DNA from: an uncultured Alphaproteobacteria bacterium
GTDB lineage: Bacteria; Pseudomonadota; Alphaproteobacteria; CAWBKL01
Assembly: GCA_963789405.1 (NCBI GenBank)
Contig: CAWBKL010000005.1
Location: forward strand, 455,976 to 519,975
Length of the DNA: 64,000 nt
Direction: 5' to 3'
Part shown: positions 37,272-53,032 of the stretch, in pieces
How positions within the stretch are numbered: position 1 is the stretch's first letter
How the letters are laid out: each line of letters starts with the position of its first letter
Position numbers and translations under genes: made by a program
Notes under the pieces: model-generated
What the model was told of the DNA's origin: nothing
Seen by the model: the letters and a program-made list of their open reading frames with translations, nothing else
The model's database searches: none

Positions 37272-37394
37272 GTCGTCCCGGACGCGATGCAGCATGCAAT
37301 GATGCTTCGCAGATCCGGGATCCACAGTTCAAGATGTCTGGATCCCGTGTCAGCAGCGCGTCATTGCATGCCGCGCTGCGCACGAGATGACACG
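37272..37394. repeat. palindromic intergenic repeat element, copy 1 (second copy at 58346..58463)
   Basis: gtcgtcccggacgcgatgcagca...tgcttcgcagatccgg...ggatcccgtgtcagca...tgcgcacgagatgacacgg shares about 75% identity, in blocks, with copy 2. The termini are inverted (gtcatcccgg / ccggatgac). Confidence 0.7.
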
Positions 37395-37419
37395 GGGCAA
37401 GAGAGCAAAAGAGCAGGCA

Positions 37420-38130
37420 ATGGCAGAGCAAAAGACGGCGGGCGCGATCATCATCGGCGATGAGATCCTCTCCGGCCGAACGAAAGACACCAACCTCAAC
37501 ACGATTGCGCTCTACTGCGAGGACTGCGGCGTCGCGCTGAAAGAGGCGCGCACCGTGGGCGACACCGAGGCCGCAATCATCGAAGCGGTGAATGCGCTGC
37601 GCGCGCGCTATGACTATGTCTTCACCACCGGCGGCATCGGCCCCACGCATGATGACATCACGGCGGAATGCATCGCCAAGGCGTTCGGCGTTCCGCTGAT
37701 CCATCATCCCGATGCGATGGCGCAGCTCAAGGCGCAATTGGGCGCCAATTTCAACGAAGCCCGCGCGCGCATGGCGCGTGCACCGCAAGGCGCGGTGCTG
37801 ATCGACAATCCGGTCTCGGTCGGCCCCGGCTTCATGACCGGGAATGTCATCACCATGGCGGGCATTCCGCGCGTGATGACGGCGATGCTGGAGAGCGCGC
37901 GCCCGTTTATCGTCGGCGGGCCGAAAGTGTTGAGCGAAGTGATTTTCACCAGCGTGCCGGAAGGCGATTTGGCCGAGCCGCTGGGCGCAATTCAAAAGCG
38001 ATTTCCTGAGGTGTCGATCGGCTCTTATCCCGGCTACCGCGATGGGCGCATCACCAACCGCCTCGTCTTGCGCTCAACCGATGCTGCCTTGCTCGCCGAA
38101 GCCAAAGCCGCCGTTGAAGCAATTGTGTGA
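37420..38130 (+). CDS. CinA N-terminal-domain / MoCF-biosynthesis-domain (molybdopterin-binding fold) protein
   Basis: GAIIIGDEILSGRTKDTNLNTIALYCEDCGVAL...YDYVFTTGGIGPTHDDIT matches the CinA-N/MoaB-MogA fold. The ORF may start at 37387. Confidence 0.7.
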   Translation: MAEQKTAGAIIIGDEILSGRTKDTNLNTIALYCEDCGVALKEARTVGDTEAAIIEAVNALRARYDYVFTTGGIGPTHDDITAECIAKAFGVPLIHHPDAMAQLKAQLGANFNEARARMARAPQGAVLIDNPVSVGPGFMTGNVITMAGIPRVMTAMLESARPFIVGGPKVLSEVIFTSVPEGDLAEPLGAIQKRFPEVSIGSYPGYRDGRITNRLVLRSTDAALLAEAKAAVEAIV

Positions 38131-39973
38131 GCTTTCTCTGGGGCGACGTCGTTGGTGAATTACATCGCGCTCTTCTTGTTCATCGCCGCGCGAATTAGCT
38201 TGTTTAGGTCTGAGTGTCCTCCCCATACAGAGACGTTCTTGCGTTCGACGGGCGGAAAATAGCGAGAGGAAAAATAGACTGCTGCTTGAACATACGAAGA
38301 GCCGATGTTTGGATATGCCGAGACAAGAGACATTCTCCGTGGATGAGTTCCGAATTTCGCCACAAGAATCGCAGCAACGGCGCGAAGTGCGTCGTGTCGC
38401 CCAGCATCTCTAAGTATGTCCAGGCACAGCTTAACTAGCGAATCATCGGATTCAGGCATGCGCATCAGAGCTGCTAACACCCACATCCTCTGCCAATCAG
38501 CCATCGATGGGCTTGCCGCGAGTTCTATCAGGGTTTCAAGCACGTTCTTATGGTCTAAGAAGTTTGTGAGGTAAGAGCAATATATCTGCGTCATGGCAGG
38601 CTTGATCTTGAAGTTTTGAATCACGTAGTCGATCGCGTGATCGGAACCCGCCTTCATAAACAGCGGAAGACAAAAACGTTCAATGCTCTCGCTGTAGATG
38701 GGAAATTCGGAAATAGACGCGAAGAGCATCTTTGTCGCGGCCAATTCGATACTCTCGTCGTGGTCCTCATCGAAGTCGTCGTCGTTTTCCCAGTCAATTT
38801 GGAATCCGTAGTCTCCATCGGCGTAGGTTTCGTCAAGCGTGGCAGTGACTTCCTCAACGGCGTCCTGGAATAGCTCATCTAGATCGGGCTCATCTGCCAT
38901 AAGCGATATGCAGGTCGTAAGCGAAGACTTTGTTTCATTGAGCGACAAGTCGTACGTCCGCAAGAACGGGATCAGGTCGAGAAGAAGGTCATCTGCTTTA
39001 TCTGCCGTCGAGAGAAAGACGTAAATGTCGTCTACATACCGCGCAGAACTAAGGTTATTGTCCGACAGATATAGGTCGATCGGGGAGAGATAGAAGTTGC
39101 CGAACAGGTCAGACGGATACATCCCCTGCAAAATTCCGCGCGAGCTTCGTCCTCCGGCGTATACGAGAAGCAAAGCTTCAAGGACATTGAGAAAGCCCTT
39201 AGCATACCCCGCATCGGACAGCGTGTTTATCAAGGTATGCTGATTTATCGAGCCAAAACAATTCGCTATGTCGAGCTTCAAAATGTACTTATTGGCACTC
39301 GACAATGCATGCTTCTTTAGAGCGGTTTGAAGTTCACTCCAACAGAGCCTCGTTGGCTTGAACATAGCCGGGCTGTCAGGCGCCTCGAACTGATGACTGA
39401 ACGATCGTGTGTGATCGGTCTTCTTTTCAATGATGAATGCGGCGGAGTCTGCGAGAGCTTGATATAACAATCTGTCAGCCGGCATCAGTATGCTTCCCGG
39501 TCGCGAGTAGACCGGCCCTAGCCGTTTGGGTGTTGTTCGAACCCGATTGGATTTGGGAACTTCAATTGTTAGGGGTGTCCCTGGGTTGAAGATACCTGAC
39601 TTCAAGTCGCCAACTACGGAGGCGACCAGTTCGTCGTGCGCTTTATCGTAAATGAATCGGAGATGTGGGGCGAAGATAAAGTCAGAACGCGTATTGTAAG
39701 TAATCCTCGCAATTGCAAGGTTCCAGTCGATTTGCTTGAGCAGCGTACCATCCAGTCCAAATGACGGTTTGACCTCGGCAGAAGGCGGCATCTCAAAAAC
39801 TCTCAATCAAGCGAGCACAACGCTATCAGTATTCGCTTAGAACTCAAACTTGTTCTGCGCTCACAACTTGATGCACTCTAAGAGTGCTCCAGGGCTCAAA
39901 TGTCGGCGCAAAAATAAACTCTGGAGTTAAGGCGCGAAACGCTCTCCGGCATATCGAAGCAGGTTGGTGCGGC
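38131..39973. other. low-GC islet (about 48-50% GC versus about 65% in the flanks) carrying a single reverse-transcriptase gene, wedged between the 3' ends of two native genes
   Basis: Composition shifts exactly at the stop codons of the CinA-like gene (38130) and the GFA gene (39974). Confidence 0.7.
38160..39791 (-). CDS. standalone reverse transcriptase (RT domain plus about 250-aa C-terminal alpha-helical domain). Candidate Abi/UG-class defence RT.
   Basis: RT motifs in order: 1 LTIEVPKSNR, 2 SRPGSIL, A ILKLDIANCFGSI, B RGILQGMYPSDLFGNFYLSPID, C YVDDIYVF, D LIPFLRTYDLSLNETKS. No maturase/X or endonuclease domain. Acidic stretch DWENDDDFDEDHDE. ATG at 39791; the ORF track extends it to a TTG at 39806. 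Confidence 0.8.
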   Translation of the reverse strand: MPPSAEVKPSFGLDGTLLKQIDWNLAIARITYNTRSDFIFAPHLRFIYDKAHDELVASVVGDLKSGIFNPGTPLTIEVPKSNRVRTTPKRLGPVYSRPGSILMPADRLLYQALADSAAFIIEKKTDHTRSFSHQFEAPDSPAMFKPTRLCWSELQTALKKHALSSANKYILKLDIANCFGSINQHTLINTLSDAGYAKGFLNVLEALLLVYAGGRSSRGILQGMYPSDLFGNFYLSPIDLYLSDNNLSSARYVDDIYVFLSTADKADDLLLDLIPFLRTYDLSLNETKSSLTTCISLMADEPDLDELFQDAVEEVTATLDETYADGDYGFQIDWENDDDFDEDHDESIELAATKMLFASISEFPIYSESIERFCLPLFMKAGSDHAIDYVIQNFKIKPAMTQIYCSYLTNFLDHKNVLETLIELAASPSMADWQRMWVLAALMRMPESDDSLVKLCLDILRDAGRHDALRAVAAILVAKFGTHPRRMSLVSAYPNIGSSYVQAAVYFSSRYFPPVERKNVSVWGGHSDLNKLIRAAMNKKSAM

Positions 39974-40360
39974 TTACTCAAAGCGGCTGGTGGCGTCGCG
40001 ATCGCGCTCATAGTGTCTGAGCAGAAATGGCGGCAACCAGGATTCGCGGCGGATGGTCCAGAGTTCGTAAGTCGGCATCAGTTGATCGGGCGCATCGAGT
40101 GATCCCAGATTCACTTCGATCTCGTCTTCGCTGCGTGAGAAAACCGGCGAGCCGCAGCGCGGGCAGAAGAAGCGCCCAGCATAATCGCGCATTTCGCCGG
40201 TGATCGTCACCGCATCCTGAGGGAAGACCGCGGATGCGTGAAACAGCGCGCCATGATGTTTGCGGCAATCGAGGCAATGACAAAGGCCGACCCGATATGG
40301 CCGCCCCGACGCTACAATTCGCACGCTGCCGCACAAGCAACCGCCGGTGAAACGCTCCAT
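39974..40360 (-). CDS. GFA-family (CENP-V-like) zinc-binding protein
   Basis: MERFTGGCLCGSVRIVASG...GLCHCLDCRKHHGA...FFCPRCGSPVF cysteine pattern. Confidence 0.7.
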   Translation of the reverse strand: MERFTGGCLCGSVRIVASGRPYRVGLCHCLDCRKHHGALFHASAVFPQDAVTITGEMRDYAGRFFCPRCGSPVFSRSEDEIEVNLGSLDAPDQLMPTYELWTIRRESWLPPFLLRHYERDRDATSRFE

Positions 40361-40406: not shown

Positions 40407-41390
40407 TCAGCCGCCGCGCAGCTCGATCTCGATGTGGCCGGGCGCGGGCACATCGCTGCCGTCCGTCCCGTCGATCACCTCATAGCCGCGATGACGCCCA
40501 TGTGAATCTTTCACATCGCTCGCCAGCGCATCCAGCTTGTCGGCCACCGCCTTGTCGCCCGCATGGAAGAACTTCACTTGGTTGTGCTCCAAGCGACCCT
40601 TGACCGGATTTTTCTCGATATTGGTGATGCCGTGCTTGTTCAAAGCCTCGATCAGCTCTTGCGCGCTTGCCGCGGCATTGGGTGAGCCTTTGGCATAGGT
40701 GATCTTGATCATCGCCGCTGCCATGCCGGTCGATGCGGTTACGCCTTCGCCTGGCTTTGATTTCGCGGGCGTTGATGCCGCGCCTGCATGCGCATCGCTT
40801 GCCTGCGCTTTTGACGGCTTGGTCGCGCCGGTGAGCCCCGCCGGCGCCGGCTTTGTTGATGGCCCTGCCAGCGCCGCAGCAATTTCGGCTTTTGCGTTCG
40901 ATTGTGGCGTAAGCGGGTTCTTCGCCGTCGCAGATGCCGGTGTGACCTGCTCTGCGAGCTTTGCATTGGGCTTGGCTGAAGGCGCCGCGATCACCGGCCG
41001 CTGATGCGGCACAGGCGGCCCGCCCGCTGTCGTGGATGCGGGCCCGGCCGGCGGCGTTACGGGCGCGGCCGATGCCACGACATCATGCGTTCCGGTTGGC
41101 GCAGGCGCTGTTGCGGCGCTCGGCGAAGCCGGCAGCTGCACATTCGGCATGGCCTTGGGGCGGGGCGGTGAGCTGATCGCGCCGGGCTTTTTGGCCGGCT
41201 GCGCCTGAGGCGGCATTTCGAGCAGCCCGCTCCGGCCCGAAGTTTTCTCAGGCGAATCGAGCACGAAAGGCGGCGTTGTCAGGGCGGGCAGAACATTGAG
41301 CATCATCAGCGCGCCCGTCAGCAGCACCGCGGCGACGGTGCCGCAGATAATGCCGATCATCTCCTTCTGCGAAACTTTAAGCGCGTTCAT
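40407..41390 (-). CDS. membrane-anchored protein: long Pro/Ala-rich linker and small C-terminal globular domain (LytR_C-like?)
   Basis: MNALKVSQKEMIGIICGTVAAVLLTGALMMLNV TM anchor. About 200 aa of P/A/T/S-rich sequence. C-terminal ...MIKITYAKGSPNAAASAQELIEALNKHGITNIEKNPVKGRLEHNQVKFF... Confidence 0.45.
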   Translation of the reverse strand: MNALKVSQKEMIGIICGTVAAVLLTGALMMLNVLPALTTPPFVLDSPEKTSGRSGLLEMPPQAQPAKKPGAISSPPRPKAMPNVQLPASPSAATAPAPTGTHDVVASAAPVTPPAGPASTTAGGPPVPHQRPVIAAPSAKPNAKLAEQVTPASATAKNPLTPQSNAKAEIAAALAGPSTKPAPAGLTGATKPSKAQASDAHAGAASTPAKSKPGEGVTASTGMAAAMIKITYAKGSPNAAASAQELIEALNKHGITNIEKNPVKGRLEHNQVKFFHAGDKAVADKLDALASDVKDSHGRHRGYEVIDGTDGSDVPAPGHIEIELRGG

Positions 41391-41514
41391 CTTCAAATCT
41401 CGTGGGCTGCCGTCGGGCCGCCAGGTCTGGGACGGGTGCCGGGCGCCCAGTTTTGCGATTTGCAGGGGCCGGTGACAAGCGCGCCGCGAGCGTGCAATAG
41501 AGCAACTCCCCCCA

Positions 41515-41599
41515 GCGGACGTGGTGGAACCGGTAGACACATGGGACTTAAAATCCCAAGCCGCAAGGCGTGAGGGTTCGAGTCCCTCCGTCCGCACCA
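41515..41599 (+). tRNA. tRNA-Leu (anticodon TAA), class II with long variable arm
   Basis: GCGGACG acceptor stem pairing with CGTCCGC-ACCA. Anticodon loop CTTAAAA (TAA at 34-36). Long variable arm. T-arm GGTTCGAGTCC. Confidence 0.85.
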
Positions 41600-41672
41600 A
41601 TCGCCGCCTCCAGGTTCCTCGAACCCTCACGCTTCATGTGATCAGGAGCGAGCAAGCGCCCGCTCCCTCTGC

Positions 41673-41708
41673 GGGTTCGAGTCCCTCCGTCCGCACCAAT
41701 CGCCGCCT
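41673..41708 (+). repeat. direct repeat of the tRNA-Leu 3' end (36 bp: T-arm, acceptor 3' half and 10 nt of trailer), 99 bp downstream of the original (41574..41609). An inverted 13-nt T-arm fragment lies between the copies.
   Basis: gggttcgagtccctccgtccgcaccaatcgccgcct occurs twice. cgaaccctcacgc at 41621 is the reverse complement of tRNA positions gcgtgagggttcg. Confidence 0.8.
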
Positions 41709-41723
41709 GCGACCGTACCAGCC

Positions 41724-42899
41724 TTACATCGGGCCCGACCCGTCGTGCAGGCTCCGCTTGGAGACGCCGTGCGCGAAGAATTTAGAGTCCCTGCTTGCCG
41801 GGGACGTCTGCGTTGCGCGCGCACCAGCCCGAAGCTGCTCCGCCATCTCGGCGGCAAACAAGTCAACGCTGGAATTCTCCGCTGCCCACGCCCGCGCGTT
41901 TTGCCCAAGGCGCATGCGCAATTGCGCGTCGCTTGCCAAGCGCTGGATTGCCGCTCTCCACCCCGCCACATCGCCCGGAGCGACCAACAAGCCGGTTTCG
42001 CCCTCGATGATGTAATCGGAAAGCCCCTTTGTGCGTGTCGCGATGACCGCCTTGCCCATCGCCATCGCTTCCAGCAGGCTGGTCAAGCCATAGGGCGAAA
42101 TGTTCTCGCTGACGGACACACAGAGAATGTCGCAGCCAGCGTAAAAGCTGCGCAGGCCCCCCATCTCGAATTCGAGGACTTTAACGCCCGCCGGAATTGG
42201 AATGCCCGAAATTGCTGTCCGGTTGAAATTCGGTACTAAGCCGGTTGGGACAATCTCAACCGAGATGTTGGCAGGCAGACCAGCCGCCGCGCTCAAGAAT
42301 GTTCGATAGTCTCTTTCTTCCGATCCCACAGATCCAACGATGATCGAGCTGGCCTCGCGCGCGGCCGGCACCGGCCGGTAGAAATTCGTGTCCACAAAGC
42401 ACCGCGAGATGAAAATCTTTCGCGGCGGCATCTTGAATTGCTCAATTCCGTACGCGCGCAGGGCTTGGCTGTAGACTGCAAGCGCATCGATCGCCCGCTG
42501 GGGGCGCAGCCAGCCGAACGAGAACCGGAGCTTTCGGCTCCTCATCAGATGAAACGCCAGGCAGACATGGCGCGGCCGGCGCGGCAGCAGCCGCATCAGC
42601 AAGGCGAGCCGAATGCCAATGCTGTCTCCGGCCGAAAACACGGAGTCAACGCTTCTCAGGCGAAAGAACGCGCAGATCGCTCCCGCAGTCGCCGGGTCGC
42701 AAAAGCGCCGCGCGAGCCTGACAAACAGATTGCGGTCAGCCTGGATTGCCTTGTCGTCTAGGATCTCGACGTCGGTGCCGAGCCTTGTTCGAATTTCATT
42801 GGCAAGCACGACATAGGCATTACGCGAGCGCTCGTCGGCTTTCACGCGCGCTTCGTCCTGAACCACAGGAGCCGCAATCACAAGAAGTGTCCGCCCCAT
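41724..42899 (-). CDS. glycosyltransferase family 1 (GT4-type)
   Basis: C-terminal GT1 signature ...LEAMAMGKAVIATRTKGLSDYIIEGETGLLVAPGD...; 391 aa from the ATG at 42899. Confidence 0.8.
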   Translation of the reverse strand: MGRTLLVIAAPVVQDEARVKADERSRNAYVVLANEIRTRLGTDVEILDDKAIQADRNLFVRLARRFCDPATAGAICAFFRLRSVDSVFSAGDSIGIRLALLMRLLPRRPRHVCLAFHLMRSRKLRFSFGWLRPQRAIDALAVYSQALRAYGIEQFKMPPRKIFISRCFVDTNFYRPVPAAREASSIIVGSVGSEERDYRTFLSAAAGLPANISVEIVPTGLVPNFNRTAISGIPIPAGVKVLEFEMGGLRSFYAGCDILCVSVSENISPYGLTSLLEAMAMGKAVIATRTKGLSDYIIEGETGLLVAPGDVAGWRAAIQRLASDAQLRMRLGQNARAWAAENSSVDLFAAEMAEQLRAGARATQTSPASRDSKFFAHGVSKRSLHDGSGPM

Positions 42900-52105: not shown

Positions 52106-53032
52106 ATGGCCGACACTTACGAGGGCGTCACCATAGGAGAAGCGGCAACAGGCGCGCGCCCCGCGCATAGCGTAACGGCCAGCGATGGCGCTTGGGAATT
52201 TGCGATCGCCGCAATAGGCCTTTTGGCGCTCTACCTGCCAACCTATTTCGATCTCGCGCGCACGACTTGGACCGATCCGTACGAGGCGCACGGGCCCTTC
52301 ATCATCGCGATCGCAATTGCCACCGGCGTGGCGCGTTGGCGGCAGTTTCTCGCCGCGCGGGGAAGCGCGCCTATCGCAGGCTTCAGCGCGCTGTCGTTTG
52401 GATTGCTGCTTTATGTGTTCGGCCGCTCGCAGGAGTTTCTCGTGCTCGAGACGGGCTCGCAGCTGCCGGTTATCGCTGGGGTCATTCTCCTGCTCAAAGG
52501 CTGGCAAGGCTTGCGCGTCTATTGGTTCGCGGTTGCGTTTCTGTTCTTTTCGGTGGTCTGGCCGGGCTGGCTGATCGATAAGCTGACGGTGCCGCTCAAA
52601 ACCGGAGCGACCAATCTTACGGTGAACACGCTCGACAGCTTCGGTTATCCGATCGCCTCGACCGGCGTGATCATTCAAATCGGGCGTTATCAGCTTCTGG
52701 TTGCCGATGCGTGCTCGGGCCTCAACACGATGATCAGCCTGCTCTCGGTCGGCGTTCTGTTTCTTTACATGATGCAGCGCGCGGCGTTGTTGTGGAACGC
52801 AGCCATCATCGCGGCGATGCCCTTCATTGCTTTCTTCGCCAATGTGCTGCGCGTGATGGCGCTCGCGCTCATCACTTATCATTTCGGCGATAAAGCAGGG
52901 CAAAGCTTTATCCATGAGTTCGCCGGCATCTTCCTCTTCAGTGTTGCGCTGGCCTTCGTGTTCTTGATCGACTTCTTGATCGAAAAAGGCGTTGCGCTTG
53001 CTAAGCAGGCGCGCACCGAGGGCCATGCATGA
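52106..53032 (+). CDS. exosortase (EpsH family; the separate EpsI gene suggests XrtB-like)
   Basis: 308 aa polytopic membrane protein with the conserved LLVADACSGLNTMISL and ANVLRVMALAL motifs of the exosortase/archaeosortase family. Confidence 0.85.
   Translation: MADTYEGVTIGEAATGARPAHSVTASDGAWEFAIAAIGLLALYLPTYFDLARTTWTDPYEAHGPFIIAIAIATGVARWRQFLAARGSAPIAGFSALSFGLLLYVFGRSQEFLVLETGSQLPVIAGVILLLKGWQGLRVYWFAVAFLFFSVVWPGWLIDKLTVPLKTGATNLTVNTLDSFGYPIASTGVIIQIGRYQLLVADACSGLNTMISLLSVGVLFLYMMQRAALLWNAAIIAAMPFIAFFANVLRVMALALITYHFGDKAGQSFIHEFAGIFLFSVALAFVFLIDFLIEKGVALAKQARTEGHA

Follow-up and report, generated by a model that had tools for sequence, protein, structure and literature searches.

A duplicated tRNA-Leu(TAA) 3′ end beside a native exosortase-type EPS locus, possibly a decayed att-flanked remnant

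The 64-kb window analysed here, i.e. the whole stretch of DNA under study, carries a single tRNA gene, a tRNA-Leu(TAA), whose 3′ end is followed by an exact second copy in the same orientation and, between the two, by a shorter inverted copy of part of the same gene. We give about an even chance to the reading that this arrangement is the decayed footprint of a site-specific integration at the 3′ half of the tRNA gene, an att-flanked remnant that is probably without present function. A repeat of this kind accompanied by an inverted copy is not expected by chance. The exosortase-type exopolysaccharide (EPS) locus that begins immediately to the right is native DNA and was not part of the duplication event.

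The tRNA-Leu(TAA) gene was identified by ARAGORN at 41515-41599 on the + strand, with an encoded CCA, and scored 63.1 bits against the Rfam tRNA model (RF00005); its T-stem (GAGGG/CCCTC) is fully paired, and it forms the attL-like side of the arrangement. A 36-mer composed of the last 26 nt of this tRNA and a 10-nt trailer, GGGTTCGAGTCCCTCCGTCCGCACCAATCGCCGCCT, occurs exactly twice in the window, at 41574-41609 (copy 1) and 41673-41708 (copy 2), both on the + strand, while no match to it was obtained in 100 shuffled sequences (0/100). The two copies start 99 bp apart, as the first-pass annotation had described, and enclose a 63-bp spacer (41610-41672) that is unique in the window and includes no ORF, promoter-like or terminator-like site. 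Copy 1 takes in the last 3 nt of the 5′ T-stem, then the T-loop and the 3′ T-stem, and continues through the 3′ strand of the acceptor stem, ACCA and the 10-nt trailer (ATCGCCGCCT), such that the block of identity begins at 41574, 3 nt upstream of the T-loop TTCGAGT, and ends beyond the CCA. With one mismatch (A to C), the direct repeat stretches to 39 nt, starting at 41571 and 41670, and this mismatch leaves the T-stem associated with copy 2 mispaired (GCGGG/CCCTC). Copy 2 has the appearance of a displaced, attR-like 3′ tRNA fragment, and neither a tRNA nor a pseudo-tRNA was called at this position using relaxed ARAGORN settings or an Rfam E-value scan, which returned noise only. These same results led us to reject the spacer and copy 2 as a combined pseudo-tRNA. 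Within the spacer, RNA folding identified a GC-rich hairpin at 41645-41666 (GGAGCG/CGCTCC, without a U-tract), which was considered as a relic variable arm and rejected, as it performed no better than shuffled sequences.

Between the two direct copies, a perfect 15-mer at 41618-41632 on the - strand is the reverse complement of 41568-41582 (100% complementary repeat pair), a source segment that covers the end of the variable arm, the 5′ T-stem and 6 nt of the T-loop. An inverted T-arm fragment had been noted here at first pass, and while its presence stands, its length is 15 nt without mismatch rather than 13 nt. A tandem site duplication had been offered in the same annotation as one possible origin of the repeat, but the simple, slippage-type form of this process is ruled out: the repeat accounts for just 39 nt of the 99-nt period, and the 60 nt downstream of copy 1 (41610-41669) are unrelated to the 60 nt downstream of copy 2 (41709-41768). 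These unrelated flanks instead indicate an insertion bounded by repeats.

Under the integration reading that we favour, a circular element would have carried an attP site that matched the tRNA gene from its T-stem through the first 10 nt after the CCA, and a tyrosine integrase would have recombined this attP with the tRNA gene by strand exchange in or beside the T-loop. The outcome would have been a regenerated intact tRNA (attL, 41515-41609) and an original 3′ end displaced downstream (attR, 41673-41708), and the element body, including its integrase gene, would later have been lost through internal deletion, which left 63 bp between the att repeats. Integrase action, deletion and the identity of the native copy are the steps that we infer. 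What argues for them is that the exact 36-bp repeat is a 3′ end fragment located downstream of the tRNA and co-oriented with it, that the identity starts by the T-loop, and that the mispaired T-stem of copy 2 is the outcome expected from a junction beside this loop. In addition, the closest relative in which the locus was recovered, an ENA contig hereafter designated L005, carries a single tRNA 3′ end followed directly by a flippase gene, as an unoccupied site would.

Part of this evidence matches the way in which tRNA-integrated islands are recognised elsewhere. Islander requires a tDNA and a co-oriented end fragment, downstream in the case of a 3′ fragment, with an integrase between them and a length of 2-200 kb, and the crossover sublocations it recognises are the anticodon loop, the T-loop and the T/acceptor junction (PMC4383910). 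Here, an intact tDNA (41515-41599) and a fragment (41673-41708) lie on the same replicon, the fragment is a 3′ end that runs through the CCA 99 bp downstream on the + strand, and its identity from 41574, 3 nt before the T-loop, places the putative crossover at a recognised sublocation. The structure thus resembles Islander islands and prophages, specifically those of the T-loop sublocation of Williams 2002, in having an intact tRNA with a co-oriented downstream 3′ fragment and an identity that extends from the T-arm past the 3′ end. The 36-bp length is also in the usual range, and falls inside the 12-98 bp reported for the repeats of tRNA-integrated elements in Sinorhizobium meliloti (Hyphomicrobiales/Rhizobiales; PMC11476347). 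It differs from these islands in having neither integrase nor cargo: the 63-bp interval includes no ORF and is far under the 2-kb minimum, the copies are spaced by 99 bp with no further copy within 64 kb, and an extra inverted tRNA fragment is present, which is neither an end fragment nor in the required orientation. As for the comparison of occupied and unoccupied sites, the single 3′ end was found in L005, which is a distant relative (cinA 61% identical), and the adjacent EPS locus is native and syntenic.

Two further kinds of tRNA-associated remnants are comparable in part. CIMEs are att-flanked remnants that keep attL and attR and have lost the integrase (PMC5704250), and the present arrangement formally corresponds to this definition if the repeats are taken as att sites, with two att-like repeats at a tRNA 3′ end and no integration, transfer or recombination genes. 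The CIMEs described so far are, in contrast, kilobase-sized and derive from identifiable ICE families, and incoming elements have been shown to mobilize them in cis, whereas only 63 bp is enclosed here, which would make this an extreme example, and no parent element was found in plasmid, phage and viral collections. One account of tRNA fragments ascribes them either to genetic elements that have integrated or to the activity of CRISPR-Cas systems (PMC9897764); the fragments considered there are like copy 2 in that a partial, non-functional tRNA 3′ copy lies beside a real gene, and unlike it in that no element body is present here.

The integration reading is confronted with a series of negative results. 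The first-pass annotation had suggested searching for an integrase and for a third copy of the 36-mer, and neither was detected in the 64-kb window: no integrase, transposase or other recombinase domain (including Phage_integrase) was identified in its 57 ORFs and the RT gene, and no third copy of the repeat was found at up to 3 mismatches. Local alignments for a degenerate repeat in the gap between the family-1 glycosyltransferase (GT1) gene and the flippase gene, in the flippase-WecG gap and at the end of the EPS locus did not score above shuffled controls. The 63-bp spacer had no other significant blastn-short match in the window or in the loci of relatives, and the spacer and junction sequences retrieved only generic tRNA ends from viral, phage and plasmid collections, in which no related element, spacer relative or attP was found. 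The 26-nt tRNA end did match viral contigs, and these matches were rejected as attP candidates because all correspond to complete phage-encoded tRNAs in tRNA arrays. The exact 57-nt 3′ part of the tRNA had no match in genome and metagenome contig collections, which do not include the source genome or its close relatives. Beyond these searches, the shared 10-nt trailer requires that attP matched the host sequence beyond the tRNA, the tiny remnant requires that both deletion ends fell just inside the att sites, and the inverted 15-mer is not predicted by a simple integration. Of the past integration/excision footprint proposed at first pass, the positional att signature holds up, while the window has no integrase, the repeats enclose no cargo, and no parent element was found in the collections searched.

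The inverted 15-mer also bears on the main rival explanation. Six of its 15 nt lie outside the block of direct-repeat identity, across the 5′ boundary of this block, and the source of the fragment was therefore the full tRNA sequence and not the 36-mer. This is better accommodated by a local rearrangement that is not site-specific, i.e. break repair or replication template switching downstream of the tRNA without any mobile element, in which the insertion would be filler DNA with templated copies (a direct one of 36 nt and an inverted one of 15 nt, of snap-back type). Consistent with such a process, both extra pieces map to one 42-nt stretch of the tRNA (41568-41609) in which their sources partly coincide, that of the inverted piece reaching into the beginning of that of the direct piece, and a 9-bp stem is possible between the inverted fragment and copy 2, which makes the inserted segment hairpin-like. 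The lack of an integrase, cargo or third copy in the window, the lack of a related element in the viral, phage and plasmid collections, and the private nature of the duplication (0/37 related loci) are likewise compatible with repair. Microhomologies and fill-ins usual in end joining are, however, much shorter than a 36-nt repeat, and an exact repeat of this length from the T-loop to beyond the CCA is a typical integrase signature. In addition, the window offers no template for the 48 spacer nt outside the inverted fragment, which resemble the tRNA no more than shuffled controls do, and a plain tandem duplication is excluded. We regard repair or template switching as a possible but rather unlikely origin.

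We also considered whether the 99-bp insertion may be absent from the organism itself and have been created by assembly or consensus errors in a noisy metagenome-assembled genome. At least six genes in the 28-58 kb range are split by frameshifts, pointing to uncorrected indel errors as in long-read assemblies, and proteins identical to those of two window genes are recorded on one 710-kb contig only. Indel noise, however, does not create exact direct (36-nt) and inverted (15-nt) copies along with 63 bp of new sequence, the junction between spacer and T-arm (41672/41673) must have been in reads, and the feature is located in the middle of a long contig and not at an end; we consequently judge an artefact to be improbable. 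The split genes themselves appear as overlapping ORFs in different frames at 29.8, 44.0-44.2, 47.3, 48.2, 55.9 and 57.6 kb, and encode a PBP1-type transglycosylase/transpeptidase (class A penicillin-binding protein), the flippase, a porin-like protein, a SurA-like protein, a GT2 and the arginyl-tRNA synthetase. Their structure suggests long-read metagenome indel errors rather than real pseudogenes.

The inverted repeat also has consequences for RNA folding, and a selected RNA-level element would provide another type of explanation, in which the inverted 15-mer would pair with the T-arm in the primary transcript, with an effect on the maturation of tRNA-Leu(UAA), or the hairpin in the spacer would stop convergent transcription and insulate the tRNA from the neighbouring GT1 gene. 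The tRNA and this gene are indeed convergent and 124 bp apart without a canonical terminator, and the tRNA with its downstream region folds far beyond shuffled sequences: for 41515-41632 (+), a transcript extending past 41632 is predicted to lock the T-arm into a long helix with about 17 pairs in an uninterrupted run (MFE -90 kcal/mol, z = -4.6). This strong fold is, however, a trivial effect of the inverted repeat, and the region without the tRNA (41600-41725) is only slightly above shuffles (z = -1.2 on the + strand and -2.05 on the - strand). Sequestration of the T-arm would also harm tRNA folding, such that the predicted helix would represent a potential cost to tRNA maturation in a read-through transcript. 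No terminator was detected on either strand of 41200-42000, the hairpin fails as an intrinsic (Rho-independent) terminator since it lacks a U-tract, and no Rfam family was matched. As the structure is moreover absent from L005 and 37 other relatives, we consider a selected RNA element very improbable.

Immediately past copy 2, the window continues with the GT1 gene (41724-42899, - strand, Pfam Glycos_transf_1), the stop codon of which lies 16 nt beyond the repeat. The presence of an EPS locus directly to the right of the tRNA, as reported at first pass, was confirmed: this exosortase-type locus extends from 41724 to about 56.5 kb, where it is limited by an arginyl-tRNA synthetase gene, and includes, beyond GT1, genes for a flippase, WecG, Poly_export, Wzz, a P-loop protein, EpsH (52106-53032), Wzy_C and a GT2. 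On the left of the tRNA are a CinA-like gene (37387-38130, +), a reverse transcriptase of the UG20 class (38160-39806, -; PADLOC RT_UG20, 2e-208), a GFA-family protein (39974-40360, -) and a Pro/Ala-rich membrane protein (40407-41390, -), while core chromosomal DNA, with rpsD, purL, purS and purC among its genes, makes up the remainder of the window. The reverse transcriptase gene, which had also been pointed out earlier at a distance of 1.5 kb, lies 1.7 kb from the tRNA between cinA and the GFA gene, and with a GC content of 0.50 and a dinucleotide delta* of 126, this islet is the sole compositionally foreign piece near the tRNA. It represents an insertion of its own, located 5′ of the tRNA. 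The UG20 reverse transcriptase is missing from the same interval in L005 and in another relative (L006).

Two other readings of the 99-bp segment, which we jointly regard as highly improbable, would give it or its neighbours an active role. The segment may be a still-active miniature att-flanked unit that provides a second attachment site for tRNA-Leu-specific integrases, with the tRNA itself spared, and that may be excisable or mobilizable in cis. Alternatively, it may result from a retro-duplication of the pre-tRNA 3′ end, made with snap-back priming by the UG20 reverse transcriptase, an orphan enzyme whose gene lies 1.7 kb upstream of the tRNA.

The first-pass annotation had placed the scar at a hotspot of island integration and had pointed to the EPS locus on its right, and neither a hotspot nor an EPS island is borne out. 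To compare tRNA-Leu(TAA) loci between relatives, a degenerate 43-nt pattern based on the 5′ half of the gene was used for their retrieval, which yielded 25 genome and 14 metagenome loci, mostly from Hyphomicrobiaceae MAGs. None of the 37 related loci with a complete tRNA had a second copy of its last 24 nt in the available flanks, even at up to 3 mismatches, which counts against the integration reading as well. The downstream regions were checked for integrases through a family summary and a direct scan: no integrase family was among the 25 most frequent families listed for 54 ORFs within about 4.5 kb, and the 10 integrase-sized ORFs beside the tRNA that were scanned directly are ordinary metabolic or transport genes. 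Given the lack of a duplicate in 37 loci and of an adjacent integrase in the ORFs checked, tRNA-Leu(TAA) is not visibly an integration target in this clade. Nor is the duplication a fixed, ancient feature shared by all relatives, as the earlier annotation had envisaged as a possible counter-argument: compared with L005 and these 37 related loci, it is specific to this lineage.

Other variation around this tRNA was observed in individual relatives. The GT1 gene lies between the tRNA and the flippase gene in this genome only, and its closest homologue (72% aa and 76% nt identity) is a stand-alone gene in an unrelated context in another relative (L046, 1747-2913), between a tRNA-Val and a TetR/RND operon; GT1 hence looks like a relocated or acquired single gene. 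In a relative from the same sample as L046 (L047; Logan SRR28211907, 1-200), tRNA-Leu(TAA) is reduced at the orthologous locus to nt 1-34, with a U8-to-C change and a break after U33 in the anticodon loop. Beyond this fragment, the contig runs on for 113 nt in unrelated DNA and terminates in the 3′ end of another tRNA, which is convergent with the fragment and of a different kind. A group I intron was considered as the cause of this broken tRNA, and rejected given the break after U33 and the mere 113 nt that precede the convergent tRNA. Taken together, the GT1 insertion and the L047 truncation may be read as weak hints of local instability, and such rearrangements at the locus count in favour of the integration reading. 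Finally, two Hyphomicrobiaceae contigs of a single MAG (HKST-UBA48; L012 and L013, JAGRKV010000043 and JAGRKV010000054) both include the same tRNA-Leu(TAA), and one of them stops exactly at the CCA while the other stops 39 nt upstream of the tRNA, with an apparent overlap of about k-1. This suggests an assembly-graph branch at the tRNA, possibly reflecting strain variation downstream.

Composition and synteny both led us to reject the EPS locus as an inserted island. Compositional measures, which the first-pass annotation had recommended, are in line with the rest of the window, with a GC of 0.603, a dinucleotide delta* of 27 across 14.8 kb and GC3 values of 0.64-0.80. The lineage is isolated and close to Hyphomicrobiales, and the best non-self relatives of its CinA protein (86% identical) are found on 1-kb contigs, with the next ones at most 71% identical; the most informative relative is L005 (CinA 61% identical). 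The gene order of L005 matches that of the window, with cinA, a membrane protein (BLASTP 5e-7), tRNA-Leu(TAA), a flippase (43% identical over 375 aa) and a segment conserved with window positions 44.9-45.2 kb, and its flippase stop codon lies 10 nt past the tRNA. The duplication, GT1, the reverse transcriptase and the GFA gene are lacking from L005. This shared order indicates that the linkage of the EPS locus to tRNA-Leu is ancestral. GT1 was also ruled out as a repeat-flanked cargo, since both repeats lie on the tRNA side of this gene and no att remnant is present in the GT1-flippase gap.

Overall, if the att reading of the duplicated tRNA end is right, this locus would represent one more displaced tRNA-fragment scar, set apart by its small size and its inverted fragment. 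Island finders that need an integrase and at least 2 kb correctly skip such scars. The scar itself is of little importance, and the useful result is instead the negative one on its neighbour: annotating the exosortase EPS locus by tRNA-Leu as an island gained through horizontal transfer would be unwarranted.
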